Shown here piece by piece: positions 24,080 through 47,923 of a DNA stretch of 64,000 bases (the stretch's first letter is position 1; every line of letters starts with the position of its first letter). A program made the translations under genes and the position numbers. The notes below the pieces were generated by a model. The model saw nothing but the letters and a program-made list of their open reading frames with translations, had not been told where the DNA came from and searched no databases. The stretch covers positions 64,453 to 128,452 of the forward strand of contig JBAQFO010000014.1 in NCBI GenBank assembly GCA_049287305.1, given 5' to 3'. The stretch comes from Minisyncoccia bacterium (lineage in GTDB: Bacteria; Patescibacteriota; Minisyncoccia; Phycocordibacterales; UBA9973).

Positions 24080-24295
24080 ATACGGGTATTGTATAAAACC
24101 CCACCGAAATACACAAATTGACGTCTCGGTAGCTGTCTGGTAATATATGTTTGTGAGTAAATTATTCAAAAATTTCGGAAACTATTATATCTGCCCAGCG
24201 GGACGGAACTTTTTGCGTTAATATTTTAAAATACGCAAAAAACCGCCCTGCTGGGCGGTTTTTTGTTTCTAAATTATCATATTAATTTGTAAAAA

Positions 24296-25012: not shown

Positions 25013-25024
25013 TATCATAAATTT

Positions 25025-25354
25025 ATGGATGACCTATTAAATCAAAAATGTGTTCCGTGTGAAGGGGGGATTATGCCTTTTGACAAAGGAACGGCGGAAA
25101 AATATCTATCCCGTATTTCGGGGTGGATGCTTGATGAAAAAGCGCAAAAGATATCCAAAGAATATAAATTCCAGGATTTTATTGGTGCGGTAAATTTCGT
25201 GAACCATGTGGCGGAAATAGCCGAATCCGAAGGGCATCATCCAGATATCAAAATTAATTACAACAAAGTTCTGCTTGAGCTATCCACTCACGCCATTGGC
25301 GGATTGTCGGAAAATGATTTCATATTGGCCGCGAAAGTGGATGCAAGTAAATAA
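25025..25354 (+). CDS. phhB: Pterin-4a-carbinolamine dehydratase
   Basis: EGHHPDIKINYNKVLLELSTHAIGGLSENDFILAAKVD, the canonical PCD/DCoH motif. Confidence 0.8.
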   Translation: MDDLLNQKCVPCEGGIMPFDKGTAEKYLSRISGWMLDEKAQKISKEYKFQDFIGAVNFVNHVAEIAESEGHHPDIKINYNKVLLELSTHAIGGLSENDFILAAKVDASK

Positions 25355-25369
25355 GAAAAAATAAAAAAA

Positions 25370-25409
25370 GGGCGTAGTAGTTGTGTTCCAAACTTGCTAC
25401 GTCCTTTTT
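25370..25409. terminator. Bidirectional terminator hairpin GGGCGTAG...CTACGTCC plus TTTTTG between convergent genes
   Basis: Seen directly between the phhB stop and the stop of the minus-strand small ORF. Confidence 0.4.
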
Positions 25410-25430
25410 GCGTGATGGTCCGTGGAGTGA

Positions 25431-25694
25431 TCAAAAGTCGATGTTTTCCTCGAAACAATTCTCACACCACGGAAGAGGCCGTTGTCCTTCGGCGTCGATG
25501 CTGTCCTCGAACCGGGGGAGTCTCCATTTGTGCTTGCCTGTGAGCGATTTTTCACACAGGAGACGCGCCCGCCTTTCTTTCTCCACTTCCAGGGCTTGGA
25601 GCATGATCATGCCCCAGCAATGATTGTGGTCCTGAAAAGGTTCGATGACCGCTAAAGTCTCTTTACGAGTAAGGAACAAATCCGATGCTTTCAT
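25431..25694 (-). CDS. Small Cys/His-containing hypothetical protein (87 aa) in the GC-rich island
   Basis: ATGA start/stop overlap with the upstream VanX-like gene. Contains HCWG and C-terminal WCENCF. Confidence 0.4.
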   Translation of the reverse strand: MKASDLFLTRKETLAVIEPFQDHNHCWGMIMLQALEVEKERRARLLCEKSLTGKHKWRLPRFEDSIDAEGQRPLPWCENCFEENIDF

Positions 25695-26380
25695 GCTTTC
25701 TCCTTTTGGGTTCGGAAAAGAACTGGGTTATATTTAGCATTTTGGCGTTTTTCCCAAAATGCCCATTCTTTATCTCCGTGAGAAAAGTGCCACCATTCTC
25801 CGTTGAAGGGGACAAAGCCACTTTCCATCATTGCCATCCTGAGATAGAGGCGATTTTTCCGTTGAAGTTCCGTGAGCTGAGTGGAAAAAGTGGTAATCTT
25901 TTCAGGGTCGCGAAAATCCGAAATTTTCGTACCCATGTCCAGCTCTTGGCCTTCTGCGTTAACCAGCGTGAGGTCTACTGCGCCCCCAGTCAGGTGTCCA
26001 GCAACTTCTGGAACTGCGATGAAGTTGTGTGTTAGGGAATACAGGTCCTCTTCCGACATACCCGCGTTTTCTTCGTCCCTCCGCAGCTTCTCCAACATTT
26101 CGTAGAACCGGCTTTCCTGCACCCGCGGATGGCGGTAGCCGTACACCACCAGCAGGAACATCGAGAGAAGTCTTAACTGGCCTGAGGCCATTATCAGTCG
26201 CTCAGCCACGTTTTGGCGGACAAAAATTTCGCTACCCGTGTATTCCTGCATCTCGGGGCGAGGCCTTGTTTGGAACAGGTCGTTTAAGGACACCATACTT
26301 TCCTTGGCTGTGAAGCTGTCGGCGTCTTTGATTGAGCGAACGTCTTTCCAAGTAACAATTCTTTTTTCCAGCATGTCCAT
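25691..26380 (-). CDS. ddpX: D-Ala-D-Ala dipeptidase, VanX/DdpX-like (peptidase M15D)
   Basis: HLTGGAVDLTL and GEWWHFSHGD are the VanX zinc-ligand and catalytic signatures. The gene is GC-rich (about 50%) against the AT-rich background. Confidence 0.8.
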   Translation of the reverse strand: MDMLEKRIVTWKDVRSIKDADSFTAKESMVSLNDLFQTRPRPEMQEYTGSEIFVRQNVAERLIMASGQLRLLSMFLLVVYGYRHPRVQESRFYEMLEKLRRDEENAGMSEEDLYSLTHNFIAVPEVAGHLTGGAVDLTLVNAEGQELDMGTKISDFRDPEKITTFSTQLTELQRKNRLYLRMAMMESGFVPFNGEWWHFSHGDKEWAFWEKRQNAKYNPVLFRTQKEKA

Positions 26381-26465
26381 ATTCTCCTCCTTGTCGAAGA
26401 ACTGTCAGGTGTTGCAAAACGCAAAACCCCTTCCGCTGGGAAGGGGTTAGCTTCAAAATTTATTT

Positions 26466-26834
26466 TTAAGCGTGGATACGCGAAGACAACCCTTTCCCAA
26501 CCGAAGTTTTGGATAGGGGATGGTGAGTTGAAAGTCTGGAAAGAACCAAGCGATATCCGCCTAGCGAGCCCTTGAGCCATTTGGAAATACGAGCGATGGT
26601 AGTGGAAGATAGGCCTGTAGACTCACTAATAGCATTGTATTGAACGTCTTCCGCAAGCAAGCGTGCAGTTTCCAGGCGACTGGAGAATTCTTTTATTTCG
26701 GCCGGAGTCAAAAGGTCGCGCATAAAACGCTTGGTTTCATCGGAATTTTTTAAAGCCAAAATAGCTTCCACCAGCTGTCTGTTGCTTTTGGTGGTCCAAT
26801 CCAAGTTTTTGTTTTTCTTAGCTGCTTTTTTCAT
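26466..26834 (-). CDS. TrpR-like YerC/YecD family DNA-binding protein (second paralog)
   Basis: LTPAEIKEFSSRLETARLL...YNAISESTGLSSTTIARISKWLK, same fold as the gene at 16829. Confidence 0.7.
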   Translation of the reverse strand: MKKAAKKNKNLDWTTKSNRQLVEAILALKNSDETKRFMRDLLTPAEIKEFSSRLETARLLAEDVQYNAISESTGLSSTTIARISKWLKGSLGGYRLVLSRLSTHHPLSKTSVGKGLSSRIHA

Positions 26835-26841
26835 ATATACT

Positions 26842-26920
26842 CCACTTTACTAAACTAAAGTGTTTTAATCAAGTAAAGTGGAAGGGTAGGGTGTGGATAA
26901 CTTTACTTAACTAAAGTGGT
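26842..26920. promoter_or_regulatory. Two copies of the quasi-palindrome CACTTTACTAAACTAAAGTG / ACTTTACTTAACTAAAGT directly upstream of the TrpR-like gene (candidate operators)
   Basis: Seen directly at 26842-26862 and 26899-26920. The 18-nt core recurs at 36652-36669. Confidence 0.35.
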
Positions 26921-26957
26921 GGGGGAATTGTCTAGCTAGTGTAGCATATTCGAATTC

Positions 26958-27707
26958 TTGAAATTTTTAAACTGCGTAAAAACGCCATACTTGAGGTATA
27001 ATGAAAATATGAGCGTCCCAGCTTCTAGCCAACAAGGAATTTCCAAAGAGCAAATTGAATATTTTATAACTTGGGCTAAGCGCTTGGTGGATGACGATGC
27101 CGTTGTGGAGAAAACTCCTCATGGGGATGAAGCACTGGTATATAAGGTGGATAGTAAAAAAGGAAATTACTTTCTTAAAATAAAACCCGGTTCAAAATCT
27201 ACAAAGGAGCTAGATCGACTAAAGTGGTTTAAGGAGAAGCTGCCGGTTCCAGAGGTTGTGGGTGCGGTGGAAAAAGATGGTTCACGAGCTATGCTCACGA
27301 CGGCGCTTCTAGGGAAAGACCTTAAGGAGCTTGCCCAAGAGTGGCCTGCGGAGAAAGTTGTTGAAAAACTGGTAGAAATTTTGCACACATTCCATAGTGT
27401 GGATGCAAAGAGTTGGCCGTTTGATGAGCCGGCATTCGGCAAGATTATTATTCACGGGGATGCATGCTTGCCCAATTTTATATTTAACAAAGATAATTTT
27501 TCAGGATACATTGATTTAGGGGGCGCGGAATTGGGGGATAGAGATGTTGATTTAGCTACCGCCATTTGGAGCTTGGAATACAACTTGGGTAAGGGTTACG
27601 GACTTCAGTTTTTACAAAAATACGGATATGAAAATCCCACCGAAGAAATTGTAGAAAAACTTTGCCTGTCAGAAGAAGCCCGCCAGCGTGAACTAGGATT
27701 TTTATGA
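26958..27707 (+). CDS. Aminoglycoside 3'-phosphotransferase-like kinase (APH family)
   Basis: IIHGDACLPNFIF...SGYIDLGGAELGDRDVDLA closely resembles the APH(3') catalytic loop and DFG-like motif. Start ambiguous (internal Met at 27009 possible). Confidence 0.7.
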   Translation: MKFLNCVKTPYLRYNENMSVPASSQQGISKEQIEYFITWAKRLVDDDAVVEKTPHGDEALVYKVDSKKGNYFLKIKPGSKSTKELDRLKWFKEKLPVPEVVGAVEKDGSRAMLTTALLGKDLKELAQEWPAEKVVEKLVEILHTFHSVDAKSWPFDEPAFGKIIIHGDACLPNFIFNKDNFSGYIDLGGAELGDRDVDLATAIWSLEYNLGKGYGLQFLQKYGYENPTEEIVEKLCLSEEARQRELGFL

Positions 27708-27745
27708 AAAATGTAAAACTTTTATCTAGATGATATACTAATAAT

Positions 27746-28426
27746 ATGGACAAAGAGCGTAGAATAGTAGACCTCACTCATGAGCTTTCCCCCGAAATTC
27801 CTTTTTGGAGCGGAAAAAGCGCTTTTGAATTGGAAATTAAAACTGACTACAAAGACTGCACCCCTCCAGATACTTTTCGAACGAATAAAATAAATTGTGC
27901 AGCAGGCATAGGTACTCATATTGATTCCCCTGCGCATGCAATCGAAAATGGGCGGACTACTGACAAATTAACCCTGGAAGAATTGGTAGTGGACTGTGTT
28001 GTTGTTAATGTTAGCAACGAGGCAAGTGAAGATTATATGATTATGCCATCAGCGGTAGAGAAATTCGAAAAAGACTACGGACAAATACCATCTGATTCGT
28101 TCGTGATTTTTTATACCGGCCGGGATAATCTTTGGGAAATCCCCGAAAAATATAATAATAATTATAAATTTCCGGCTGTCCATATTTCTACGGCGGAACT
28201 GCTTTTAAAGAGGGATGTTGTAGGTATAGGAACTGATACTTTGTCTTGCGATAGGGGAGACGCAGGCTTTCCGGTACATAGAGCTATCCTGGGCGCCGAC
28301 AAATACTTGGTTGAGAATATTGCTAATGCCAAAATGCTTCCAGCCACAGGGGCAAAAATTTTCGCTTTGCCTATGAAGATCAAAGATGCCACAGAATCAC
28401 CTTTAAGATTAATAGCTTTAATATGA
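27746..28426 (+). CDS. Cyclase-family protein (kynurenine/aryl-formamidase-like)
   Basis: VDLTHEL, GIGTHIDSPAHAIE and VVGIGTDTLSCD motifs of the cyclase family. Confidence 0.75.
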   Translation: MDKERRIVDLTHELSPEIPFWSGKSAFELEIKTDYKDCTPPDTFRTNKINCAAGIGTHIDSPAHAIENGRTTDKLTLEELVVDCVVVNVSNEASEDYMIMPSAVEKFEKDYGQIPSDSFVIFYTGRDNLWEIPEKYNNNYKFPAVHISTAELLLKRDVVGIGTDTLSCDRGDAGFPVHRAILGADKYLVENIANAKMLPATGAKIFALPMKIKDATESPLRLIALI

Positions 28427-28430
28427 AAAC

Positions 28431-29132
28431 ATGAAAGTTCACATCATAATGCATGAAAGTTTTGAAGCTTCGGCGGCTATTGAAACATGGGCGGAAGGCA
28501 GGGGACACGGCGTTACTTATACTAGGCTATATGCCGGGGACTCTTTCCCCGCAGAATGTGATTTTGATTTTTTGGTTGTTATGGGCGGACCGCAATCTCC
28601 GGCGACCACACTGGAAGAATGTCCACATTTTGATGCTCAAAAGGAAATTGCATTTATTAAAAAAGCTGTGGAACAAAAAAAGATATTGCTTGGGGTGTGC
28701 CTGGGCGCGCAACTTATTGGCGAGGCTCTAGGGGCACACTTTGACCACAGCCCGAATAAAGAAATTGGTGTTTTCCCGATTACTCTTACCGAAGACGGCA
28801 AGCAAGATCCGATATTTTCCACTTTTCCTGAAAAATTCTTGGTTGGTCATTGGCATGGAGATATGCCGGGGCTTACGTCTGAATCAAAGATTCTCGCAAC
28901 GAGCGAGGGCTGTCCAAGGCAGATTGTTCGCTACGCACCTAATATTTACGGATTTCAATGCCATTTTGAATTTACGCCGGAAGCAATTGAGGGAATGATA
29001 CAAAATAGCACAAGCGAACTTGAGCAACTGAAGGGTTTACCTTACGTCCAAACTCCAGAGCAATTAAGGGTAAATGATTACTCTGAGATGAATAAGTTTC
29101 TTTTTAATTTTTTAGATAAAATAGTTAAATAA
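28431..29132 (+). CDS. Class I glutamine amidotransferase-like protein
   Basis: LGVCLGAQLIG (catalytic Cys) and a C-terminal HFE motif. Confidence 0.7.
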   Translation: MKVHIIMHESFEASAAIETWAEGRGHGVTYTRLYAGDSFPAECDFDFLVVMGGPQSPATTLEECPHFDAQKEIAFIKKAVEQKKILLGVCLGAQLIGEALGAHFDHSPNKEIGVFPITLTEDGKQDPIFSTFPEKFLVGHWHGDMPGLTSESKILATSEGCPRQIVRYAPNIYGFQCHFEFTPEAIEGMIQNSTSELEQLKGLPYVQTPEQLRVNDYSEMNKFLFNFLDKIVK

Positions 29133-29136
29133 AATT

Positions 29137-30414
29137 ATGTCAACAGACTATAATTCAAAATTAATAGCTAGTTTATATGAAGAGACGGAGGAAGAGAAAG
29201 CCTCAGAAATAGCTGACGAAATGCTCGAAATTGGAGATGCTATTTTTATACAACCTTTATACTCGGCTTATAAAAAATTCTTCCAAACTAGCATGTCTCA
29301 CTATTTCGTGCAGGATATATCCAATTTTAAAAACCCGGAAGCCACAGAGATATTGAAGAGTATTGCTCGGGAAGGAAAAGAATCAGGGTTTAGTTATTGC
29401 TTGAGTCACTTCATAAAAATTGAATTATATGAACTATGGTTAATAGAAAAAACTTACAGTCTTGTTTTTTCTGAGATAGGTTCAAAATACCCAAATGTTT
29501 ATTCTCTTGAGACTTATTTAGAATATTTACGTAAAGCAAAGTCACAATTGCCCTTAACAGATATGCTCAGGGTATATTTTGAAGATAGTACTAAAAGAAT
29601 TGACCTAAAAACTGTGATTTTAAAATTTTTATTAAAAGAAAATCCGGCAGATAACCTTACGTACTACCTTGAAAACTTCGAAAAGATTAAGGGGGATAAG
29701 TCAGAAATTATTTTAGCAAAAGAAATAGTTGGGTGGAAAGGTTCAATAATAAAAGCTTTGAAAGAAAAAATAATGAAAATTGGATCTCCCTACGCAAAAG
29801 AAATAATCGAAGATGAAATAAAAAAAGAAAAAAAAGAGCAAGAACAAGAGCAAGAAAAAAAGGTTGAATCAAATACGATGGTTTATTCTAATGCAGATAT
29901 TGTAAGTGAAATTTACGATCTAAGAAATTTGATTAACGTCCTCTCTTTAGATAATAAGGATTTTGCATTTGCTCTTTTTCCTGACTCTGAAATTTTATTT
30001 TCTCAAATAAAAACTGCACAAACTAAAGCCGACTTAGATTCATATTGCATCGAACTTAGATCTTTCCTAACTTTGTTTAACAAAAATATAAATAACCACG
30101 GGCTAGATTATGTAGCAGCGTCTAAGTTGATTGCTAACACGACTGAAGATCAGATGAGGACCCCCTTAAACCAACTAGAGTTATATATGACTACAAAAAA
30201 TAAAACTATTTCGGAAAAACTATTTGGGCTTAGAAACCTTATTTTTATTGTTAATAAATTTGCTCATCCCGATGACCAAGAAGGTTTAGTAGATTCTTTA
30301 CAAAAAATTGGCCTTATTGATTTTTATAAAAATAACGATTGGTCAGGTCTTCATAGAAAAATATTAGAAGTCTACAGAGATTCGTTAGTAAAAATTAGGG
30401 AATCTCTCTCATAG
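29137..30414 (+). CDS. Hypothetical protein (425 aa), very AT-rich, with a KKEKKEQEQEQEKK low-complexity linker
   Basis: Long ORF with no recognisable motif. Confidence 0.45.
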   Translation: MSTDYNSKLIASLYEETEEEKASEIADEMLEIGDAIFIQPLYSAYKKFFQTSMSHYFVQDISNFKNPEATEILKSIAREGKESGFSYCLSHFIKIELYELWLIEKTYSLVFSEIGSKYPNVYSLETYLEYLRKAKSQLPLTDMLRVYFEDSTKRIDLKTVILKFLLKENPADNLTYYLENFEKIKGDKSEIILAKEIVGWKGSIIKALKEKIMKIGSPYAKEIIEDEIKKEKKEQEQEQEKKVESNTMVYSNADIVSEIYDLRNLINVLSLDNKDFAFALFPDSEILFSQIKTAQTKADLDSYCIELRSFLTLFNKNINNHGLDYVAASKLIANTTEDQMRTPLNQLELYMTTKNKTISEKLFGLRNLIFIVNKFAHPDDQEGLVDSLQKIGLIDFYKNNDWSGLHRKILEVYRDSLVKIRESLS

Positions 30415-30421
30415 CCACATA

Positions 30422-32938
30422 TTAATTTTTTGCTTTTAGAAATTTCTCAATTATTTTTCCGTCTCTTTTGAGCCAGGCGATGTTGCCTTCAAGGCGTTCA
30501 AGGACTTGGTCTATGGCGCGTTTGGCGCCGGGGGCTTTGTGGGTCTGGAAGAATTGCTTGAAGGATTTCAAGTGTTTGGTTTCAGCGCTTCCGCCTATAG
30601 CTTTCACGGCGCTTGATAGGGTGAGTCCACCTTCACCGTAGCGAGAGACAAAAGTTTTCCAATTCTTTTTCATAAAATTCCACCAAATGTCTCGTCCTAT
30701 AGGATTGGCACCCACATTAGACAGGATGCCGATGCTGTCTTGCTGGCGGACGTGGGGAGACATGGCAAATTCACAGGCAAGCTGTAATATTTTTGGATTT
30801 TGGAAATCTCCCAAATTACCCCCTATGCGGTTCTTCTCTTCGTGGAGAGTTTCCTTTTTATACATCTTTACCAGCGTTTCGTATTCTTTCATATCTCCCC
30901 AGGTGGCGATAATGGAATATATTGCTCCCCGAATGTCTGGAGAAATGTGCCCGCCTTTTTGCAAAGATAAAAATTTCTTTCTGGCTTCTGAAATTACTTT
31001 CTTATCTCCCGCACGTCCCGCCCGAGAAATCGCCAAAGAGCGGAGGAGGATGTCCGAATGAGCCTCACCATCCTTGCTCTGCCAACCCAATTTCTCTACA
31101 AGAGGGGAGAACAATTGTCGAGAAAGAGCGTCCAGCTTATTCACCGCATTCTGCGGGACCCCGCCTGAGGCGGTGGCTTTGGATTTAGAATGAGCCAATA
31201 GTTGTTCAAAGCGAGCCAGACCGGAAGCAATTTCTACCCATACGGTATAATTATCCTCGTTTTCATACGCAGTTAAAAATTTAAGCGCATCCACCGAAGG
31301 CCGGTCACCGGATTCGGCGAGCGCAAATAAGTCGCGGATGATGCCCAGCCTGTCCCGAGCCGGAAGCTCTTTAGTTGAAACAGGTGACACCAACCTTTGA
31401 AGCAACGGCTCATCATAGGCGGTGCGGTAGAATCCAACTTCACCGAAATTCATTTTTAAAAAATCTTCGGAAACGAAAGCGAGCGGAACTTGCCAAACAG
31501 TTCTCATCTTATTTTTCCTTTTGGAAACAGGGCTGGCGAAAAATCTCTCTTGCGAAATTATTAAGTCTTTGCTTATTTTTATTACGGGATAGCCTGGCTT
31601 CTTAGTCCAATCATCCATCATTTTCGCAACCGATTTTCCCGAAACTTTCTCAAACGCTTGCCAAAGGTGCGTAGTCTCCGCATTTTTATAGCTATATTTT
31701 TTTAAATAATACCTGAGTCCGTTTCTGAAATTTTCTTCACCTAAATATTCGGCGAGCATGCGAATAACCGAAGCGCCCTTAGAATAGGAAACTGCGTCAA
31801 AAATTTCACCTATTTCGTCTGGATGATGGACTTCTACTTCAATGGGATGGGTGCTTTCTAGTGCGTCTAAGCGCAGGGCCCGGCCGAGGTCATCGGTGGC
31901 AAAGTGCGTCCAGATATCCCACTTCGGGAAAAGTTTGTCTACCGCAAGGTATTCAATAAACGAAGCAAAGCCTTCGTTTAGCCACAGGTGAGTCCACCAT
32001 TCCATTGTTACCAGGTTGCCGAACCATTGGTGAGCGAGTTCGTGAGCAACGACAAGCGCTACCCATTGCTTATTGGAAGTCGAGGAGTGTTCTTCATCCA
32101 CAAGCAAGGCGCTTTCTCTATAAGTTATTGCTCCCCAGTTTTCCATTGCCCCAGACGCGAAGTCTGGGATAGCTATCATGTCCAGCTCAGGAAGAGGGAA
32201 AGGGATGTTAAAATATTTTTCGTAAAATTCCAGTGTTTTCACGGCGCATTCTAGGGCAAATTTTGCCTGATGTTTTTTGCCGGCGGTGGTAAACACCCGG
32301 ACGATGGTGCCGTTCTTAGATTTTCTTTCCAAAAATTCGAAATCTCCGACAATGAATGCGAGAAGGTAGGTAGACATTTTCGGCGTGGGAGAAAACTTAA
32401 TAATTTCATATCCTGCCTCATGCTCCGCCACGGATATGGGTAGGGTATTTGAAATTGCGGTTTTGCCTTTAGGCACCACCAGAGAAACATTAAAGATAGC
32501 TTTTTGCGCCGGTTCGTCAATGCAAGGGAAAGCGCGACGGGCGTCGGTGGCTTCAAATTGGGTTGTGGCCATCACACACTCTTTACCGTCCACGTTGTAA
32601 CAGCTTCTATAAAAACCACGCATCTTGTCGTTTAAAATTCCGCGGAAAAATATTTTAAGTTTAACTTTACCGGCGGGGAGAAATTCTGGAAATGAAAAGG
32701 TAGCTGTCTCGCTTTTTTTGTCATAGGAAATTTTGGCAAATTTTTTTGCTATGTCTGCTGTCTGAATTTCAATTTCCTTGGAGTGAAGAGTTAGGGTTTT
32801 TGTTTTTTCTAAAATAGATAGGGTTATGGTCTCAAAACCGGAAAAAGTGAAATTCTCCAAATCGGGTTTCAGCTGTATGTCGTAGTCCATAGGAATGATA
32901 TTTTTGGACAGGCGGACGCTGTTTCGCTTTATTTTCAT
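30422..32938 (-). CDS. pepN: Aminopeptidase N (M1 family)
   Basis: GAMENWG, HELAHQWFGNLVTMEWWTHLWLNEGFA (HEXXH-E zinc site), 838 aa. Confidence 0.9.
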   Translation of the reverse strand: MKIKRNSVRLSKNIIPMDYDIQLKPDLENFTFSGFETITLSILEKTKTLTLHSKEIEIQTADIAKKFAKISYDKKSETATFSFPEFLPAGKVKLKIFFRGILNDKMRGFYRSCYNVDGKECVMATTQFEATDARRAFPCIDEPAQKAIFNVSLVVPKGKTAISNTLPISVAEHEAGYEIIKFSPTPKMSTYLLAFIVGDFEFLERKSKNGTIVRVFTTAGKKHQAKFALECAVKTLEFYEKYFNIPFPLPELDMIAIPDFASGAMENWGAITYRESALLVDEEHSSTSNKQWVALVVAHELAHQWFGNLVTMEWWTHLWLNEGFASFIEYLAVDKLFPKWDIWTHFATDDLGRALRLDALESTHPIEVEVHHPDEIGEIFDAVSYSKGASVIRMLAEYLGEENFRNGLRYYLKKYSYKNAETTHLWQAFEKVSGKSVAKMMDDWTKKPGYPVIKISKDLIISQERFFASPVSKRKNKMRTVWQVPLAFVSEDFLKMNFGEVGFYRTAYDEPLLQRLVSPVSTKELPARDRLGIIRDLFALAESGDRPSVDALKFLTAYENEDNYTVWVEIASGLARFEQLLAHSKSKATASGGVPQNAVNKLDALSRQLFSPLVEKLGWQSKDGEAHSDILLRSLAISRAGRAGDKKVISEARKKFLSLQKGGHISPDIRGAIYSIIATWGDMKEYETLVKMYKKETLHEEKNRIGGNLGDFQNPKILQLACEFAMSPHVRQQDSIGILSNVGANPIGRDIWWNFMKKNWKTFVSRYGEGGLTLSSAVKAIGGSAETKHLKSFKQFFQTHKAPGAKRAIDQVLERLEGNIAWLKRDGKIIEKFLKAKN

Positions 32939-32983
32939 AAATACATCTTAGCATAAAGTAAAAAAACGCATAAAAATACAAAG

Positions 32984-33015
32984 CCCCGTAGAGAGCAACA
33001 GGGCTCTGTACGGGG
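32984..33015 (-). terminator. Terminator hairpin CCCCGTAGAGAGC...GCTCTGTACGGGG downstream of the GC-rich gene on the minus strand
   Basis: 13-bp stem with one mismatch, T-rich tract on the minus strand. Confidence 0.4.
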
Positions 33016-33029
33016 CAGGGTGTGATGTC

Positions 33030-33557
33030 TTACGAACGGAACCTGCTCCTGGAGAGTTTCTGACCGGTTCGTCTGTCGAGCGAGCCGTTCTGCACCAGCA
33101 CTTTTGGAGCGTGACTGCAGAATGGACCTGCAGTGATTTCCAACGTGTGCTGGTAGCGCCCTTTGCCGTTACGGACCTTTACTCCGGCCCGTTTGTGGGT
33201 CAAGACCACCCCAATCAAGTAGTCCTTGATGGGATGGTCGTGGGAGTGCTGATTGACGGCGAAGATTGCCGCCAACACTTCTCTCCCCGACATGTCGGCT
33301 GTCAGGAGTCCCTGGTTCCCCAGGGCGATAATCCTGCTGCCGACTTGCTTGACCCAGGTGTAGTCCTTGCCAGTCCGCTTGGCTCTCTCCAAGCCAGACC
33401 GGTGCTTCTTGATGTACTTAGTGAGCGCGCCACGCTCACTCGGTACCGGTGAGTGTTTCTTTGGTGTTCTTCTGCCGAGGGCGATGCCCACGACAAGGAC
33501 TACCACCCCGATGAATGCAATTACTCCCCAAACCTCAGCAGGCATAGAGCCCTCCAA
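33030..33557 (-). CDS. Hypothetical membrane-anchored protein (175 aa), GC-rich (about 55%)
   Basis: N-terminal TM helix VWGVIAFIGVVVLVVGIALG followed by a basic region. Composition is strongly atypical for this genome. Confidence 0.45.
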   Translation of the reverse strand: MEGSMPAEVWGVIAFIGVVVLVVGIALGRRTPKKHSPVPSERGALTKYIKKHRSGLERAKRTGKDYTWVKQVGSRIIALGNQGLLTADMSGREVLAAIFAVNQHSHDHPIKDYLIGVVLTHKRAGVKVRNGKGRYQHTLEITAGPFCSHAPKVLVQNGSLDRRTGQKLSRSRFRS

Positions 33558-33683
33558 GTGATTAATTCCATTAATTGTGAAGCCAATTCCCAGGAAAGGG
33601 CATGGCGAACGTTTGCAGAATTATAGCATAATAATAGCTCAAAGTCAAGACGACGATGTAACGAAAAATGCTAGTATATAAAG

Positions 33684-34427
33684 GTGGAAAACCAAACTTA
33701 CCAAATAAAAATGACCGGCTTTGAGGGTCCGTTCGGACTACTTTTAGACCTAATAGAAAAACGCAAACTTCACATCAACGATGTTTCTTTGGCTGAAGTA
33801 ACAGAAGATTACTTGAAACATTTGAACACACTAGGCGGGCTTCCTCCTGCCGAGATTTCAAGCTTCGTTCTGGTTGCTTCCACTCTCCTTTTAATAAAGT
33901 CCAAATCTTTGTTACCGAATTTAGACCTGACAACAGAAGAAGAAGGGGATATTAAAAACCTTGAAGAGAGACTTCGCCTATATGAACTTTTCACCAAGCT
34001 TGGAGGAAATATAAAAAGTGATTTTGGTCAAAACATAATCTTTGCGCCGCAAGAGCGTAAAAATAATCTTCTAGTGTTTTTGCCCGATGAGCAAACCACA
34101 CCCGACTCCATGATGACCTTCGCTCAAAATGTGCTGGGTGCTATGCCGAAAAAAGTGTTTTTGCCTGAAGTTGAAGTCCGAAAAGTTATAAGCATAGAGG
34201 AAATGATAAATAGCCTTACGGAGAGAATAACTAAATCTTTGAAAATGAATTTTAAAGAGTTCAGCGGCAAGGCCGTAACTCGGGAAGAGAAAGTCTTTGT
34301 AATCGTGGGGTTTCTTGCTATGCTGGAACTTGTAAGAAACGGGATAATAGACGCTATACAGTCTTCGCACGGGGAAGATATTTTTATAGAAAAGACAGAA
34401 GTTGTGGTTGAAGCTACTTATGAATAA
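33684..34427 (+). CDS. scpA: Segregation and condensation protein A
   Basis: MTGFEGPFGLLLDLIEKRKLHINDVSLAEVTEDYL, the canonical ScpA N-terminus. Confidence 0.8.
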   Translation: MENQTYQIKMTGFEGPFGLLLDLIEKRKLHINDVSLAEVTEDYLKHLNTLGGLPPAEISSFVLVASTLLLIKSKSLLPNLDLTTEEEGDIKNLEERLRLYELFTKLGGNIKSDFGQNIIFAPQERKNNLLVFLPDEQTTPDSMMTFAQNVLGAMPKKVFLPEVEVRKVISIEEMINSLTERITKSLKMNFKEFSGKAVTREEKVFVIVGFLAMLELVRNGIIDAIQSSHGEDIFIEKTEVVVEATYE

Positions 34428-34983
34428 TGACTTAGAAAAAAAAATAGAAGCCATCCTTTTTTGGAAAGGGGAGCCGGTCGCACTGAAAAAACTCGGTGAA
34501 ATATTGAAAGTTTCGCCGGGGGAAGTGCTGGAAGCTATTTCGCATTTGAAAGTAACTCTGGAGAGCCGGGGAATAGCGCTTCAGGAAAATAACGAAGAAT
34601 TTACATTGGGCACGGCGCCCGAGTTTTCTGACCTTTTTGAGAATTTACAAAAAGAAGAACTGAACAAAGACCTTTCCAAGGCGGCGCTTGAAACATTGTC
34701 CGTCGTGCTTTATAAAAACGGCGCAAGCCGAGCGGAGATTGATTATATTCGAGGAGTAAACTCAAGCTTCTCTTTACGAGCTCTGTCTATCCGAGGGCTG
34801 GTGGAAAAAACCCTGGATCCGAAAGACAGCAGAAGATTTATCTACAAACCAAGCTTTGACCTCTTGTCGTTTATGGGCGTGAAATCGGTGCAAGAGCTAC
34901 CGGGATGGGAAGAAGTTAATGCTTCCGTAGAAATTGCCGCGAAAAACTTAGAAGAAGAAACTAATAATGAAAGTTCAGGTTAA
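34402..34983 (+). CDS. scpB: Segregation and condensation protein B
   Basis: IEAILFWKGEPVALKKLGEIL...tandem winged-helix, overlaps scpA. Confidence 0.8.
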   Translation: MWLKLLMNNDLEKKIEAILFWKGEPVALKKLGEILKVSPGEVLEAISHLKVTLESRGIALQENNEEFTLGTAPEFSDLFENLQKEELNKDLSKAALETLSVVLYKNGASRAEIDYIRGVNSSFSLRALSIRGLVEKTLDPKDSRRFIYKPSFDLLSFMGVKSVQELPGWEEVNASVEIAAKNLEEETNNESSG

Positions 34984-36646
34984 AACTTGTGTTAACTGCC
35001 AACTAGACTTTACGATAGAGCCGGATGATTTCGGATTTTACGAAAAAATAAATGTGCCTGCACCTACATCCTGCCCAGATTGTAGACTGCAAAGACGTCT
35101 GGCGTGGAGAAATGATCTTACTTTTTATAATCGCAAATGCGATGTGTGTAAAAAAGAGATAATTTCACTTTATCACCAAGATAAACCACTGACTGTTTAT
35201 TGCAATAAGTGCTGGTGGAGCGACAAGTGGGACCCGAAAAGTTACGGCCAAGAGATAGATTTTTCAAGGCCATTTTTTGAGCAGTTTAGAGAATTGCAGG
35301 ACCGAGTGCCGTTGCTCGCAATGTTCAATGATGATGGAGTAGGAAGCGTAAACTGTGAATATACGCAAAATACCACCTTTGCAAAAAATTGCTACATGGG
35401 AGCAATGACCTGGAAAAGCGAGGACGTTATGTATTACTATCATATTGCCGGACCAGAAACGAGAGATGTTGTGGATCCTTTAGATATATTCAACTATTCT
35501 CAAATTATTTATGATTCAATCTTTCTGGAACACTGCTACAATTGCAAGAATTGTTATTACTCAACTGGTCTTACTGATTGTAATTTTTGCTATGACTGCA
35601 AAGGTTGCTCCGATTGTTTTATGTCGGTAAATCTGAGACAGAAAAAATATTGTATTTTAAATAAACAATACACAAAAGAAGAATACAAAAAAATAATAAA
35701 AAGCTACCGGTTGGATACTTTTTCGGGTGTGGCGCGGGCTAAAAAAGAGTTTGCTGATTTTCTTTCTATGCAGATAAGAAGATTTGCAAATATTCGAAAT
35801 TCTGTTAGTTGTACTGGTGATGGAATATTTAATTGTAAGAATGTAAAAAATTCGATATTCGCTAGAGCCTGTGAAAATGTGCGATTTTTTTGGAGAGGCA
35901 ATGATGTTAAAGATAGTTACGACTTAACTCCGGCTGGGGAAACATCGGAGTGCTACGAAGGCCTAACTCCCGACCATGATTATCGCGTCCTATTCTCAAT
36001 CTACTCTTTAAAAAGCCAGGAATTGAGCTATGTAGAAAATTGCCATTCTTCCAAGCACCTATTTGGATGTGCGGGCATCAGGCATGGGCAGTATTCTATT
36101 TTAAATAAAGAGTATTCTAAAGAAGAATATTTCCAACTACGAGATAAGCTTATTAAACACATGAAAACTACGGGGGAGTATGGGGAATTTTTCCCAGGCT
36201 CAATGTCAAATTTTGGCTACAATGAAACAATGGCCCAAGATTATTTTCCTCTAACGAAAGAACAAGCTCTAGCTCGTGGCTTTAAATGGTGGGATAAGAT
36301 CCAAAAAACTCATGGGAAGGAAACGCTTTCCCACGATCAGATACCAGATTCAATTAACAATATTACTGATGCTATACTTGGAGAAGTGTTCGCGTGTCTT
36401 GAGTGTAAAAGAAATTACAAAATTATTAAAAATGAGTTCTTGTTCTACAAAAAACATTTAATACCTATACCTAGAAAATGTTTCTTTTGCAGGCATAGCG
36501 ATCGTATGAAGTTTGAGAATCCCTGTAAACTCTGGCACCGAAAATGTATGAACGAAGGGTGCATAAACGAATTTGAAACCAGCTATGCGCCAGAGCGGCC
36601 GGAAATAATTTACTGCGAAAGTTGTTATAACAAAGAAGTTTATTAG
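34967..36646 (+). CDS. Cysteine-rich multi-zinc-ribbon paralog family member 4
   Basis: 559 aa. TCVNCQLDFTIEPDDFGFYEKINVPAPTSCPDCRLQRRLAWRND..., internal CKGCSDCFMSVNLRQKKYCILNKQYTKEEY, C-terminal FETSYAPERPEIIYCESCYNKEVY. Overlaps the scpB stop by 17 nt. Confidence 0.85.
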   Translation: MKVQVKTCVNCQLDFTIEPDDFGFYEKINVPAPTSCPDCRLQRRLAWRNDLTFYNRKCDVCKKEIISLYHQDKPLTVYCNKCWWSDKWDPKSYGQEIDFSRPFFEQFRELQDRVPLLAMFNDDGVGSVNCEYTQNTTFAKNCYMGAMTWKSEDVMYYYHIAGPETRDVVDPLDIFNYSQIIYDSIFLEHCYNCKNCYYSTGLTDCNFCYDCKGCSDCFMSVNLRQKKYCILNKQYTKEEYKKIIKSYRLDTFSGVARAKKEFADFLSMQIRRFANIRNSVSCTGDGIFNCKNVKNSIFARACENVRFFWRGNDVKDSYDLTPAGETSECYEGLTPDHDYRVLFSIYSLKSQELSYVENCHSSKHLFGCAGIRHGQYSILNKEYSKEEYFQLRDKLIKHMKTTGEYGEFFPGSMSNFGYNETMAQDYFPLTKEQALARGFKWWDKIQKTHGKETLSHDQIPDSINNITDAILGEVFACLECKRNYKIIKNEFLFYKKHLIPIPRKCFFCRHSDRMKFENPCKLWHRKCMNEGCINEFETSYAPERPEIIYCESCYNKEVY

Positions 36647-36649
36647 CTA

Positions 36650-36675
36650 CTTTACTTAACTAAAGTAGCTAGAGG
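36650..36675. repeat. Perfect 10-bp-arm palindrome AGCTACTTTA-cttaac-TAAAGTAGCT between convergent gene ends; its core ACTTTACTTAACTAAAGT is identical to the site at 26899-26918
   Basis: Seen directly. Confidence 0.45.
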
Positions 36676-36678
36676 AGA

Positions 36679-37515
36679 TTACAGACACTCAGTATTTATG
36701 CCGAGGACGTAATTGTTTATCAGATTCAAGTTTTTTACATTTTCTTCTCCCGCAAAACCTTGTAGGTCGATATCGGTAATCAAAGTTTTATATCTTTCCG
36801 TAAAATTTTTCGCGAGCGGAAGATAAGACCAATGCCACTTTTCTTCATTGTAGCCAGAAGGGCGAACGAGACTTTTCTCATTGTAGGGCTGGCAAAATCC
36901 ATAAGTTGAAGCATTTTTAACTAGCCATTCATAAACTCTTTTCCCGTCTTCGGTTTGAAAATAATAGGGGACTGTCATGTTTACGTCTATGTCAGTGCCC
37001 CAGTGGTGGCGAGAAGTGCCGGGGACCGAACTGTATTCCAGAATTTTTTCAAATCTTGCTAATCCGTCAGGGATAGAAATGTTTAATTTTTTTCCATCTA
37101 CCAAGGTAATCCCATTCCACTTGTCGTCCCAAATTTTTTTCTGGGAATCAAAATTTCTGGCAGCTGAAACTATTTGCAAATTTACGCCTTCCTTGCTGGC
37201 TGCTTCCGCCATCGCGATAAATGCCCCCAAGGCCTCTTTCCTTAAGTGGGTGTTGTATCCGCTCATGTTATATTTTGCCGGCACAGGTAGAAATTCAACC
37301 ACTTGGCTAGGAATAAATTTACCAAGCAGGTAAACCTTCTCTGCTTCTTCTTTGGCTTTTCTGCCGGCTTCCTTTTGAGCCAGCTCTTCTTGCAGGGCTT
37401 TTTGCGCAAGCAGTTTTTGTTCTTTAATCGTCGAAAGGGAAAAATTAACTATTATTGCTCCTACAACAGCCAATATAATTAAAGAAATTAGGATTTTTGT
37501 TGAATTTTTTTTCAC
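36679..37515 (-). CDS. Membrane-anchored M15-family D-Ala-D-Ala carboxypeptidase (VanY-like)
   Basis: N-terminal TM helix, then SAARNFDSQKKIW and GTSRHHWGTDIDVN (LAS-type zinc site). Confidence 0.7.
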   Translation of the reverse strand: MKKNSTKILISLIILAVVGAIIVNFSLSTIKEQKLLAQKALQEELAQKEAGRKAKEEAEKVYLLGKFIPSQVVEFLPVPAKYNMSGYNTHLRKEALGAFIAMAEAASKEGVNLQIVSAARNFDSQKKIWDDKWNGITLVDGKKLNISIPDGLARFEKILEYSSVPGTSRHHWGTDIDVNMTVPYYFQTEDGKRVYEWLVKNASTYGFCQPYNEKSLVRPSGYNEEKWHWSYLPLAKNFTERYKTLITDIDLQGFAGEENVKNLNLINNYVLGINTECL

Positions 37516-37573
37516 TTCCGAACAATAACATATGGATGCATTTTAATCAAAAAAGTCCTATATTATAAGGACA

Positions 37574-39313
37574 ATGAAGGCAGAGACGAAACAATGCCAG
37601 AACTGCAAATCGGACTTTACTATTGAGCCGGACGATTTCGGGTTTTATGAGAAAATAAAAGTTCCTCTGCCTACATTCTGTCCGGATTGCAGAAGACAAA
37701 GGCGCTGGGCGTGGAGAAACAACATGTCCCTTTACAACCGCCAATGTGAATTATGCGGGAAGGGAGTCGTCTCTCTTTATCATCCAGATTCAGACCTTGT
37801 AGTTTATTGCAATAAATGCTGGTGGAGTGACAAATGGGATCCTAAAAGATATGGAGTAAATTATGATTTTTCCAGAACATTCTTTGCTCAATTCCGCGAG
37901 CTTGTAAGTAAGGTTCCCCATATGGCTATCGTAAATGATGATGGCATAGCCAGTTTAAATTGTGAATATACGCACGACTGGTGGTTCTCAAAAAATTGCT
38001 ATATGTGTTTTTCGGGGTGGTATGTGGAAAATGTGATATATAGTTTTTTCGTATTGAAGGGCAAGGATATTATGGATTGTATGAATATACGTTCGGAAAG
38101 CAATTGGATATACGACTGCACCCTGACAAGCTTGTCTTATAATTCAAAGTATTTAAATTACTGCCTCTCTTGCATTGATTCTCAATTTTTATATAACTGC
38201 ATTAATTGCAATAGTTGTTTCATGTGCGTAAATTTAACCAATAAAAAATATTATTTTAAAAACCGACAATACTCAAAAGAGGAGTATGAAAAAATTTTAG
38301 AAAGTTACCGGCTGGATACGTTTTCCGGAGTAGAAAAAGCCCGAAGAGAGTTTGATACATTTCGCCTGCCTTATCCCCGCCGATTCTTACATCTTTTTCG
38401 CACAGTAAATAGTGTCGGTGACATACTTTCCGATTCTAAAAATACAAAATACTGTTTTGTTACAAAAAATTCCGAGAATTGCAGATACAGCGAATACGCG
38501 GGAGACAAAAATAATCCGAACAAAGACTGCTATGACCTCACTCTGTGCGGAGGTGTGTCGGAGTGCTATGAAGGAGTTGTGTTGGACCATTCCCAATTGA
38601 ATCTTTTCGGACTCTTTTCGGTTAAAAGCCAGGACATACAATATAACCAGCATTGTCACAACTGCAAGCATGTTTTTGGGTGTGTCGGCCTTAGAAACGC
38701 GAGCTATTGTATTTTCAACAAGCAATACACAAAAGAAGAATATGAAAAACTTGTGCCACAAATAATAAAACACATGAATGAGATGCCTTACATGGACAAG
38801 GTCGGCAACGAATATCGCTACGGAGAATATTTTCCGGCTGAGCTTTCTTATTTTGGCTACAATGAATCTTCGGCAATGGAGCAATATCCGCTTACGAAAA
38901 CAGAAGCTATGGAAAAAGGTTTCAGGTGGCAGGATGAAACGCAGCGCACCATTGGGAAGGAAACTTTAAAACCGGAGAATATCCCGGAAGGTATCGAAGA
39001 AATAACAGATTCTGTCTTAAATGAGATATTGGCCTGCGTTGACTGCAAGAGAAACTACAAAATCATTCCCAACGAGCTTATATTTTATAAAAAAATGAAA
39101 ATTCCAATTCCGAGGAGGTGTTTTTATTGTCGTCACGAAGCAAGAGTTAAGAGGTGGAATCCTTTCAAGCTTTGGCACAGAGAATGCATGTGCGGTAAAG
39201 ACAATCATTTCCACGGAGAAGAGAACTGCACAGTGGAGTTTGAAACATCTTACGCGCCGGGCAGGCCGGAAATAGTGTATTGTGAAAAATGTTATCAGGC
39301 AGAGATGTATTAA
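37574..39313 (+). CDS. Cysteine-rich multi-zinc-ribbon paralog family member 5
   Basis: 579 aa. KQCQNCKSDFTIEPDDFGFYEKIKVPLPTFCPDCRRQRRWAWRNN..., C-terminal EFETSYAPGRPEIVYCEKCYQAEMY. Confidence 0.85.
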   Translation: MKAETKQCQNCKSDFTIEPDDFGFYEKIKVPLPTFCPDCRRQRRWAWRNNMSLYNRQCELCGKGVVSLYHPDSDLVVYCNKCWWSDKWDPKRYGVNYDFSRTFFAQFRELVSKVPHMAIVNDDGIASLNCEYTHDWWFSKNCYMCFSGWYVENVIYSFFVLKGKDIMDCMNIRSESNWIYDCTLTSLSYNSKYLNYCLSCIDSQFLYNCINCNSCFMCVNLTNKKYYFKNRQYSKEEYEKILESYRLDTFSGVEKARREFDTFRLPYPRRFLHLFRTVNSVGDILSDSKNTKYCFVTKNSENCRYSEYAGDKNNPNKDCYDLTLCGGVSECYEGVVLDHSQLNLFGLFSVKSQDIQYNQHCHNCKHVFGCVGLRNASYCIFNKQYTKEEYEKLVPQIIKHMNEMPYMDKVGNEYRYGEYFPAELSYFGYNESSAMEQYPLTKTEAMEKGFRWQDETQRTIGKETLKPENIPEGIEEITDSVLNEILACVDCKRNYKIIPNELIFYKKMKIPIPRRCFYCRHEARVKRWNPFKLWHRECMCGKDNHFHGEENCTVEFETSYAPGRPEIVYCEKCYQAEMY

Positions 39314-39315
39314 TT

Positions 39316-39822: not shown

Positions 39823-39854
39823 GTATTTTATAAAAAACACCCAAAATGCTATTA
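39819..39854. repeat. About 36-nt promoter-like direct repeat, copy 1 (TTAAGTATTTTATAAAAAACA(c/t)C(c/t)AAAATGCTAT)
   Basis: Near-identical to the copy at 40462-40498. Both lie immediately upstream of a gene start and contain TATAAT-like boxes. Confidence 0.4.
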
Positions 39855-39870
39855 TCTATATAAATAAAAT

Positions 39871-47910: not shown

Positions 47911-47923
47911 GATAAACAACACA

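Follow-up and report, generated by a model that had tools for sequence, protein, structure and literature searches.

The window, a 64-kb stretch of DNA with a G+C content of ~40%, carries on its minus strand a hisR-like gene (26466-26834) that encodes a YerC/YecD TrpR-related protein of 122 aa, as identified from its open reading frame and family profiles. The protein scored 69.4 bits against Pfam PF01371 (cut-off 27) and 69.5 bits against NCBIfam TIGR02531 (YerC/YecD; cut-off 42.2), which places it within that family, and its best solved relatives are 3FRW (E = 6.6e-14), 3G1C (E = 9.6e-13), and 3KOR (E = 3.3e-11), of which 3G1C is treated as HisR (PMC9413887). It is 100% identical to an NCBI-annotated protein of a Minisyncoccia bacterium MAG. 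The helix-turn-helix aligns gap-free with solved HisR-type structures (SSTTIARI in the window protein vs STATISRV in Firmicute homologues), and the Thr and Arg that match TrpR T81 and R84 in the alignment are retained, together with the conserved Tyr. In the effector helix, the Firmicute FFED corresponds to FMRD in the window protein and to FMRD or FLRD in CPR proteins, so that one acidic position is occupied by Arg. Roles of these residues were taken from a published study and the alignment was made here; the same study reports that the tryptophan-contacting residues of TrpR are not conserved in HisR-type proteins (PMC9413887). An E. coli-type TrpR identity was rejected based on the TIGR01321 score (21.6 bits vs a cut-off of 67.25) and a differing operator sequence. 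Just 3' of hisR lies a G+C-rich intrinsic-terminator-like hairpin with a T tail (26425-26448, minus strand, folding at -19.8 kcal/mol), an example of a canonical terminator in this genome. Divergent from hisR is an APH-family phosphotransferase gene (27009-27707, plus strand, profile match), where TATAAT at 26997-27002, 6 nt before the ATG, was read by eye as a putative promoter; a sigma-70 consensus scan of this promoter region gave no match.

The 18-mer ACTTTACTTAACTAAAGT occurs exactly at 26900-26917 and at 36649-36666, 9.7 kb apart, with identity ending at the box edges and unrelated flanks on either side. A third copy of its core, with one mismatch, lies at 26844-26861. The original prediction had noted the identical 18-mer at two distant sites, and these sites are real; the positions it gave (26899-26918 and 36652-36669) were off by 1-3 nt, and it missed a fourth, degenerate box at 26862-26879 that abuts the promoter-proximal copy. 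In their 20-bp form, the three window boxes (CACTTTACTAAACTAAAGTG, aACTTTACTTAACTAAAGTg, and tACTTTACTTAACTAAAGTa) conform to the palindrome cacTTTA-N6-TAAAgtg. The pattern ACTTTA-N{4,8}-TAAAGT had three matches where 0.07 were expected, and none of the shuffles attained this count, while the 18-mer with ≤3 mismatches allowed gave six strand-hits against 0.11 expected. In a position-weight scan of the entire window, no box other than these three scored ≥8 bits (~0.1 in shuffles). A motif search with enrichment statistics had been proposed genome-wide; run here on the 64-kb window, it found three good copies.

Three of the four boxes precede hisR. The promoter-proximal box, box B (26844-26861; 20-bp form CACTTTACTAAACTAAAGTG at 26843-26862), was the first copy in the original prediction. 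Its right arm, TAAAGT (26849-26844, minus strand), is a putative -10 element located 9 nt before the ATG at 26834. Box A, the degenerate box read from the sequence (ACTTTACTTGATTAAAAC on the minus strand, 26862-26879), abuts box B, and its centre contains a -35-like TTGATT (26872-26867) positioned 17 nt upstream of TAAAGT. The upstream auxiliary box is the exact 18-mer at 26900-26917, previously listed as the second copy, and lies 38 nt from box A start-to-start (26917 vs 26879, minus strand). Between the two, 12 nt upstream of box A and with one base in common with the upstream box, is a perfect match to the DnaA-box-like 9-mer TTATCCACA (26892-26900, minus strand).

To assess conservation of this arrangement, we compared 80 Paceibacteria species-representative loci of the regulator orthologue, considering boxes within 300 nt upstream. 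A box precedes the orthologue in 77/80 loci, as it precedes hisR in the window and as would be the case under HisR-type autoregulation, and an abutting tandem pair is present in 72/80. Box centres are nTTGAC (box A, 72/72 pairs) and nTTTG[C/A], the conserved TAAAGT-ACTTTA junction lies inside the promoter spacer, and the distance from box to ATG is 6-7 nt in 60 of the 77 box-carrying loci. Overall, the 839 kb of orthologous loci contain 167 boxes, compared with ~0.25 expected from a composition estimate. The 9-mer TTATCCACA (≤1 mismatch) was found ≤40 nt upstream of box A in 65/77 orthologous promoters, at 10-13 nt in 50/77, against a background expectation of ~0.026 such 9-mers per 70 nt. Loci L018, L020, L039, L061, L074, and L117 likewise have a third box, which abuts TTATCCACA at a distance of 37-38 nt upstream from box A. 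Abutting boxes with an embedded TTGAC -35 and a TAAAGT -10 so near the ATG suggest an autorepressed, leaderless promoter; the predicted architecture, TTGAC-17-TAAAGT followed by 6-7 nt to the ATG, implies leaderless transcripts.

The remaining exact copy, site 3 (36644-36671; box core 36649-36666), is situated between two converging genes. Cys-rich paralog 4 (34967-36646, plus strand, 559 aa with 34 Cys; open reading frame and homologue search) ends 2 nt before the box core, and a VanY-type M15 D-Ala-D-Ala carboxypeptidase gene (36679-37515, minus strand; Pfam PF02557, E = 1.3e-30) converges on it. The palindrome AGCTACTTTA-cttaac-TAAAGTAGCT at 36645-36670 starts within the TAG stop codon of paralog 4. 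It had been described as a 10-bp-arm palindrome in the 32-nt gap between the converging genes; the location was confirmed (stops at 36646 and 36679), while the perfect arms are in fact 11 bp long (T36644/A36671). With a position-weight score of 32.7, this box is the highest scoring in the window (training maximum 33.9). As RNA, the site folds into a hairpin of -12.8 to -14.1 kcal/mol on either strand (z = -2.5 and -3.9). Nonetheless, a terminator scan of 36300-37000 found no terminator-like site, and the plus-strand tail is GAGGAGA and the stem A+U-rich, hence an intrinsic terminator with a G+C-rich stem and direct U-tract was rejected for site 3. Because it lies between two 3' ends and faces the convergent VanY gene, site 3 controls no obvious promoter. 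Cys-rich paralog 5 (37574-39313, plus strand, 579 aa; open reading frame), the closest to paralog 4 in the tree, has no box upstream. The closest syntenic relative, L201, in which VanY is likewise convergent and the paralog 4 orthologue is 78% identical, lacks any box, so that the box is dispensable at the Cys-rich/VanY junction. In L203, the box begins 2 nt past the stop codon within TAGCTACTTTA, exactly as at site 3.

Cys-rich paralog 4 belongs to a large family of hypothetical proteins that is CPR-specific; a homologue search with it returned 7988 proteins at E ≤0.001, none with a functional name. Proteins of this family are ~570 residues long. The original prediction that the motif links the regulator to the Cys-rich locus was approached from two sides. 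Among 120 metagenome loci picked solely by the pattern ACTTTASTWAASTAAAGT, a hisR homologue was present in 19-22 (gene start 0-135 nt from the box), a Cys-rich family gene in 10-11 independent loci, with the box usually between tandem paralogs, and an SBP_bac_3 (hisX-type) gene in 8-10, all non-CPR. Between tandem Cys-rich paralogs of related Paceibacteria, the box lies 2-3 nt after the stop and 6-24 nt before the next start. Retrieval via paralog 4 orthologues yielded eight loci with DNA, of which four had a box directly upstream of a Cys-rich gene and two, L203 among them, had boxes beyond the final paralog, opposite a convergent gene. Both results support the link, for some members of the family: most paralogs carry no box, including 5/6 in the window. 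No -35 element was recognisable by eye in the single boxes of Cys-rich arrays, which makes promoter overlap there uncertain.

The window palindrome is identical to the published consensus of HisR (B. subtilis YerC), cacTTTAnnnnnnTAAAgtg (cacTTTA-N6-TAAAgtg), which has been validated in vitro, and R. gnavus HisR binds CAGTTTAGTATAGTAAAGT in a histidine-dependent manner (PMC9413887). That study covers Firmicutes, Actinobacteria, and Synergistetes, reports HisR autoregulation in 183 genomes (about half of those published), and describes boxes that precede histidine biosynthesis or transport genes (hisXYZ, yuiF) (PMC9413887). Here, boxes before such genes were found among the non-CPR metagenome matches only (SBP_bac_3). 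No histidine or transport gene lies beside a box in the window, where none was found among the ~45 genes scanned by profile, nor beside one in most CPR loci, in which hisR, Cys-rich genes, and others recur as neighbours; the sole box near hisG (L056) is 115 nt downstream of it. The name HisR may therefore not fit the effector of the regulator in these bacteria.

Taken as a whole, these results are best explained by the 18-mer being the operator of the regulator encoded at 26466-26834, a repressor of the HisR/YerC type within the TrpR family; we consider this reading very probable from family membership, box identity, and position. The earlier suggestion that the 18-mer is the recognition site of the TrpR-like protein is supported by the YerC/YecD family assignment, the HisR consensus, and the 77/80 conservation. 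It is quite improbable that the boxes instead serve another regulator, or represent a specialised promoter element (e.g., a TAAAGT -10 used by an alternative sigma factor) with the YerC/YecD gene merely as a target. Most orthologous promoters do place TAAAGT at -10 distance from the ATG and TTGAC at -35, and binding by the CPR YerC/YecD protein is predicted from sequence; yet the left arms ACTTTA and the conserved TAAAGT-ACTTTA spacer junction would be superfluous for a sigma factor, the orthologous Firmicute regulator has this palindrome as its validated box (PMC9413887), and pattern-picked boxes adjoin a hisR homologue in ~1/6 of loci. Less credible still is a short dispersed (REP- or MITE-like) repeat that landed in two places, as also proposed originally. 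Exact 18-nt identity at sites 9.7 kb apart, the palindromic shape, and the intergenic position of site 3 between convergent genes would suit such an element, but the identity stops at the box edges, neither terminal repeats nor target duplications occur outside the palindrome, and copies hold fixed positions relative to -35, -10, and ATG in 77 species. With three good copies in 64 kb rather than many, and unrelated rather than common flanks, a REP/MITE-like repeat was rejected. A chance likeness could draw on an A+T-rich motif in a window of ~40% G+C; given 0.07-0.11 expected vs 3-6 observed, no shuffle matching the observed count, and cross-species conservation, chance was refuted as well and its probability is negligible, in agreement with the original statement that an 18-nt match exceeds chance.

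An alternative confined to site 3 deserves more weight, even if we still regard it as unlikely: that the site is mainly an RNA element, an 11-bp-stem hairpin serving to terminate or stabilise transcripts of the converging Cys-rich and VanY genes, with its likeness to an operator being secondary or a dual-use "operator-terminator". The hairpin is stable on both strands and occupies the only 32 nt separating two stop codons, boxes with the same AGCT-extended arms in other genomes have T-runs after and A-runs before them (L018 6749, L026 8026, L055 8733, and L166 1790), and ~11/27 non-promoter boxes in yerC-centred loci are between convergent genes. Against this, the plus strand has no U-tract after the hairpin and the terminator scan was empty there, the A+U-rich stem is unlike the canonical terminator at 26425-26448, and L201 has the same gene junction without a hairpin. 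Moreover, the promoter box 9.7 kb away has exactly this loop (CTTAAC) and these arms, an identity that a hairpin role alone does not need.

Returning to the repressor box as the preferred reading, the order at the hisR promoter (upstream box at 26900-26917, TTATCCACA, box A with the -35, and box B with the TAAAGT -10) is such that a dimer sitting on boxes A and B would block access of RNA polymerase, and hisR, with its presumably leaderless or near-leaderless transcript, would thereby be autorepressed. Site 3 would be a high-affinity box of the kind placed between tandem Cys-rich paralogs in related Paceibacteria; here the next gene is the convergent VanY gene, which would leave the box without a promoter to control. 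Possible identities for it are a relic, a roadblock, and a terminator; most likely, it is either an orphan from rearrangement of the array, or a protein roadblock or hairpin that halts read-through at the converging ends. A broader proposal, which we find conceivable but put forward tentatively, is that a HisR-type repressor in Paceibacteria was rewired off histidine genes to the leaderless promoter of its own gene (perhaps together with DnaA via TTATCCACA) and to members of the Cys-rich family. Boxes at gene ends, whether between tandem paralogs or where genes converge, some of them built into hairpin-plus-T-run terminators, would then serve not as promoter operators but as conditional terminators or as roadblocks that depend on the effector.

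CPR bacteria, or Patescibacteria, are mostly uncultured and have very few regulators, and to our knowledge almost nothing is known about their transcriptional regulation. The results here offer a concrete regulator-operator pair that can be tested and that many Paceibacteria species conserve. They also open a first functional route into the very large Cys-rich family, whose members are hypothetical proteins and some of which are probably under an amino-acid-type repressor. The HisR/YerC motif itself was already known; here it occurs in an ultra-small CPR bacterium, at the regulator's own promoter and at Cys-rich genes instead of histidine genes. Should boxes at 3' ends indeed act as roadblocks, a TrpR-family repressor would be used in an unusual way; if not, the findings extend a published regulon to a new phylum, which is routine.

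Among known systems, E. coli TrpR has a palindromic operator of ~18-20 bp that overlaps the promoter, is autoregulated, and binds as tandem dimers (trpO, aroH, and trpR). The window regulator resembles it in fold family, in a promoter-overlapping palindromic operator, and in predicted autoregulation, while the E. coli operator (TGTACTnGTnnACnAGTACA) differs from the window box. DNA-bound repressors are known to act as roadblocks at B. subtilis CodY and CcpA sites inside operons and with E. coli LacI at O2. Similarity to these systems, a strong repressor site after or between coding regions as seen at site 3 and in the gaps of Cys-rich arrays, is a functional analogy only, and site 3 differs in lying at the meeting point of convergent genes, where an elongation block is hypothetical. 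Site 3 is also akin to REP elements and bidirectional terminators, being a palindrome between convergent genes with a stable hairpin, but it has a low copy number, no U-tract, and the sequence of a regulator's operator. The closest likeness is to HisR, which shares the TIGR02531/PF01371 protein family, the identical box consensus, and a box before the regulator's own gene, and whose hisX-type targets were reproduced by the non-CPR matches of our DNA scan. In contrast to published HisR, the host lineage is Patescibacteria/Paceibacteria, which is absent from that study (nor was a HisR-CPR connection found in the literature searched), and an acidic effector-helix residue of the Firmicute protein is replaced. 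Furthermore, the CPR boxes form an abutting pair in which both the -35 and the -10 element of a promoter that is probably leaderless are embedded, with a DnaA-box-like 9-mer upstream, many lie at gene 3' ends, and their apparent targets are Cys-rich hypothetical proteins rather than histidine genes.

An exact 18-nt sequence, ACTTTACTTAACTAAAGT, occurred at two positions in the window (26900–26917 and 36649–36666), and a third copy with one mismatch (26844–26861) was found within CACTTTACTAAACTAAAGTG at 26843–26862. This confirmed the repeated 18-mer of the original prediction, with a shift of 1–3 nt in its coordinates. Palindromes of the form ACTTTA-N{4,8}-TAAAGT were observed three times in the window; dinucleotide-preserving shuffles predicted 0.07 occurrences, and none contained as many as three. 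A position weight matrix (PWM) for the box, trained on related genomes (training maximum 33.9 bits), likewise identified three boxes only in the 64 kb, the highest-scoring of which was the distant copy at 36649–36666, here termed site 3 (32.7 bits). An Rfam search of 24000–40000 matched no families. The alternative that the 18-mer is a dispersed repeat was rejected.

Two of the boxes lie upstream of hisR (26466–26834, minus strand). The 122 aa product scores above the curated thresholds for both Pfam Trp_repressor and NCBIfam TIGR02531 ("YerC/YecD family TrpR-related protein"), fails the TrpR equivalog model, and has 3FRW, 3G1C, and 3KOR as its nearest solved relatives. It is identical to an NCBI-annotated protein of a Minisyncoccia bacterium MAG, and hundreds of relatives at 60%–75% identity are present in Paceibacteria/Nomurabacteria, among which the helix-turn-helix TGLSSTTIARISKWL is nearly invariant.

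Conservation of the promoter was assessed in 80 loci from species-representative genomes, retrieved through the hisR protein, where a box was called if it had ≤1 mismatch over the 12 arm positions and lay no more than 300 nt upstream of the orthologue. Results showed a box in 77 out of 80 loci (one of the three exceptions had no upstream DNA at all). Two abutting boxes were present in 72 loci, with the distal box centered on nTTGAC in every case (72/72) and the proximal box mostly on GTTTG[C/A], and the proximal box was followed at 6–7 nt by an in-frame ATG in 60 of the 77 loci with a box. The resulting layout (TTGACT, 17 nt, (TGn)TAAAGT, 6–7 nt, ATG) suggests a sigma-70-type promoter that would give rise to a leaderless mRNA. 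Both readings are based on cross-species conservation and not on a consensus scan, as the sigma-70 scan called no promoter at 26400–27300. The operator arms are also conserved at positions that a promoter alone does not require. The window promoter shares the layout of its orthologues and comprises, on the minus strand, an upstream box (26917–26900), the DnaA-box 9-mer TTATCCACA (26900–26892), a 12-nt gap, a degenerate box A (ACTTTACTTGATTAAAAC with TTGATT, 26879–26862), and box B (26861–26844), which is separated by 9 nt from the ATG at 26834. At the divergent APH-like gene, TATAAT (26997–27002) lies 6 nt ahead of an in-frame ATG at 27009, and the promoter-to-ATG spacing at this gene and at hisR suggests that both mRNAs are leaderless. 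The upstream box is located ~80 nt upstream of this TATAAT, and we therefore do not claim it as an operator of the APH gene.

The 9-mer at 26892–26900 (minus strand) is a perfect DnaA box, 12 nt upstream of box A. With ≤1 mismatch, the same 9-mer was found ≤40 nt upstream of box A in 65 out of 77 orthologous hisR promoters, including 50/77 with a distance of 10–13 nt and the same orientation, compared with a background expectation of ~0.026 per 70 nt. It may be a site for DnaA or another factor, at about -55 to -63. A replication origin was rejected, as the window contains only one other perfect copy (17103–17111), and hence two perfect boxes without a cluster.

Metagenome contigs were also scanned for the DNA pattern ACTTTASTWAASTAAAGT without any protein criterion, which yielded 120 loci. 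A hisR homologue began 0–135 nt from the box in 19–22 of these, and a Cys-rich family member adjoined it in 10–11. An SBP_bac_3 lipoprotein gene was located behind the box in 8–10 out of 120, at a G+C content (0.31–0.64) indicating that these loci are not CPR; in the published HisR regulon, this gene is the hisX-type target. That the pattern recovered the regulator together with its known targets argues strongly that it is the box of this hisR-type regulator. Seven loci (L103, L122, L134, L149, L150, L151, and L196; G+C 0.58–0.60, some from human gut) carry near-identical stretches of ~58 nt around ACTTTAGTTAAGTAAAGT, directly upstream of the SBP_bac_3 lipoprotein gene. These resemble the HisR-hisXYZ arrangement known from the published regulon, here in a gut bacterium of high G+C content, and the ACTTTAGTTAAGTAAAGT/SBP_bac_3 loci served as a positive control.

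Box-bearing Cys-rich loci usually share one layout, in which the stop codon of one paralog is followed by 2–3 nt, a box (sometimes a tandem pair), 6–24 nt, and the ATG of the next paralog (e.g., L086, L088, L094, L101, L104, L114, L148, L171, L177, and L194). Orthologues of the window's Cys-rich paralog 4 (66%–78% identical) led to eight further loci with DNA. A box was immediately upstream of a Cys-rich gene in four (L202, L203, L204, and L205), and in two of the eight (L202 and L203) tandem boxes followed the last paralog, with a convergent PaaX_M-like gene opposite. The L203 box begins 2 nt past the stop codon, in TAGCTACTTTA, as it does in the window. The other four loci had no box, including L201, which has a window-like convergent Cys4/VanY arrangement. 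Boxes were scattered over a neighbor-joining tree of the paralogs, and a dedicated regulated clade was therefore rejected. As the majority of Cys-rich paralogs also have no box (5/6 in the window), the association between box and Cys-rich genes is real, but partial and evolutionarily fluid. The sequence evidence thus supports the original prediction, in which the TrpR-like protein recognizes the 18-mer and is thereby tied to the Cys-rich locus: the motif matches the HisR consensus, is conserved at orthologues, and recurs at Cys-rich loci.

The Cys-rich family is CPR-specific and very large, with at least 7,988 matches (E ≤ 0.001) among 8,000 candidates, all "hypothetical protein" or unnamed. 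The window encodes six paralogs with 29–37 Cys each (207–6216, 34967–39313, and 63426–63827). Searches of Pfam and NCBIfam gave no matches to the family, and those of PDB sequences no significant ones. A confident AF2 model (pLDDT 84.4, pTM 0.81) predicts N- and C-terminal zinc-ribbon-like modules flanking a central beta-solenoid. Foldseek comparison of the model with PDB returned no neighbor at E ≤ 0.001; left-handed beta-helix proteins resembled its central beta-solenoid only weakly (best E = 3e-3). In the window (6241–7737) and in three related loci (L206 8668–9686, L207 5741–8224, and L208 5742–8234), Cys-rich arrays are directly followed by a gene resembling those for type-IV-secretion coupling proteins (TrwB_AAD_bind/T4SS-DNA_transf), which in the relatives encodes an additional zf_Tbcl_2 zinc finger. 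This recurrent adjacency might hint at the function of the family.

Site 3 is a top-quality box, yet has no gene start on either flank. It occupies the center of a perfect palindrome whose arms are 11 bp long (36644–36671). The palindrome starts in the TAG stop of paralog 4 (34967–36646), and its other end is 8 nt short of the stop of a convergent VanY-type gene (36679–37515). Site 3 might be a remnant of the paralog-box-paralog layout, orphaned by array rearrangement around VanY; paralogs 4 and 5 (37574–39313) are mutual closest relatives, and VanY now lies between them. Alternatively, bound protein might act as a roadblock that halts read-through between the converging genes, or the RNA of either strand might fold into a hairpin (-13 to -14 kcal/mol) serving as a weak terminator or stabilizer. 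Both of the latter are favored by the placement of boxes elsewhere. Approximately 11 out of 27 non-promoter boxes in the protein-centered loci lie between convergent genes, 8 of these ~11 just past a pterin-4a-carbinolamine dehydratase gene, and several have AGCT-extended arms and a T-run, resembling terminators built from operators. Nonetheless, the boxless L201 locus and the lack of a U-tract in the window copy argue against an essential role for site 3, and a consensus scan called no terminator there. Orphan, roadblock, and hairpin are not mutually exclusive.

The hisR gene is set among genes of amino-acid and peptide metabolism (23219–28426), namely those for a PRPP synthase-like protein (23219–24169), a phenylalanine-4-hydroxylase-like protein (24296–25012), a pterin dehydratase (25025–25354), a VanX-type M15 dipeptidase (25691–26380), and an arylformamidase-like cyclase (27746–28426, below cut-off), with aminopeptidase N at 30422–32938. 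In other species, hisR likewise has peptidase genes as neighbors (PepN in L033, L049, L054, and L074; a putative leucyl aminopeptidase, read from sequence, in L010, L039, and L117). The box that follows the pterin dehydratase gene in other genomes was not found downstream of the window copy, where a G+C-rich hairpin with flanking A- and T-runs (25355–25430) is likely a bidirectional terminator. An 87-aa ORF (25431–25694, minus strand) shares 4 nt (ATGA) with the VanX-type gene at the stop of the latter. An 8-bp palindrome, TTACGTAA, in ATTACGTAAT context, occurs in two to three copies just past the pterin-4a-carbinolamine dehydratase stop, beside HisR-type boxes (L033 7925–8000, L063 9220–9250, and L042 7030–7075). 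It constitutes a second palindromic element at this convergent junction, unrelated to the box. Cumulative GC skew in the window rises to ~47 kb and then falls (about 46000–50000), coinciding with a switch of genes from mostly plus to mostly minus strand. CPR-type hisR and boxes were also present on a 2.7-kb contig (L001, PLYI01000048.1) binned as a "Bathyarchaeota archaeon" MAG, with a second box upstream of a putative LysE-type transporter gene (read from sequence). The contig probably belongs to Patescibacteria and was mis-binned.

In a 2022 comparative-genomics study (PMC9413887), yerC of B. subtilis was identified as hisR, encoding a histidine repressor of the TrpR family. The study gave cacTTTAnnnnnnTAAAgtg as the box common to Firmicutes, Actinobacteria, and Synergistetes, showed by fluorescence polarization that the R. 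gnavus protein binds CAGTTTAGTATAGTAAAGT in a histidine-dependent manner, and reported hisR autoregulation in 183 genomes. The window boxes are instances of exactly the same consensus, although CPR bacteria were outside the taxa of that study, and our literature search found no paper pairing HisR with Patescibacteria. As the motif was already published for other phyla, the core of the finding is ordinary; what is new, all of it computational, is that the system extends to CPR, with a putative leaderless promoter carrying tandem boxes, a conserved DnaA-box-like element, Cys-rich targets, and boxes at gene 3′ ends. Protein family, box, and predicted autoregulation all recur in CPR, whereas a histidine regulon was not seen in the loci covered. 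No histidine genes adjoin a box among the ~45 window genes scanned (housekeeping, peptidase, cell-wall, and purine genes), and in the CPR loci, the single box near a hisG gene is downstream of it. Moreover, CPR proteins have Arg in place of one acidic residue in the effector helix of Firmicutes (FFED), and histidine may or may not have been kept as the effector. Given the differing regulon and the effector-helix Arg, we regard the system as a variant of HisR: regulator family and box are unchanged, but the phylum is new, the targets differ, and the placements are unusual.
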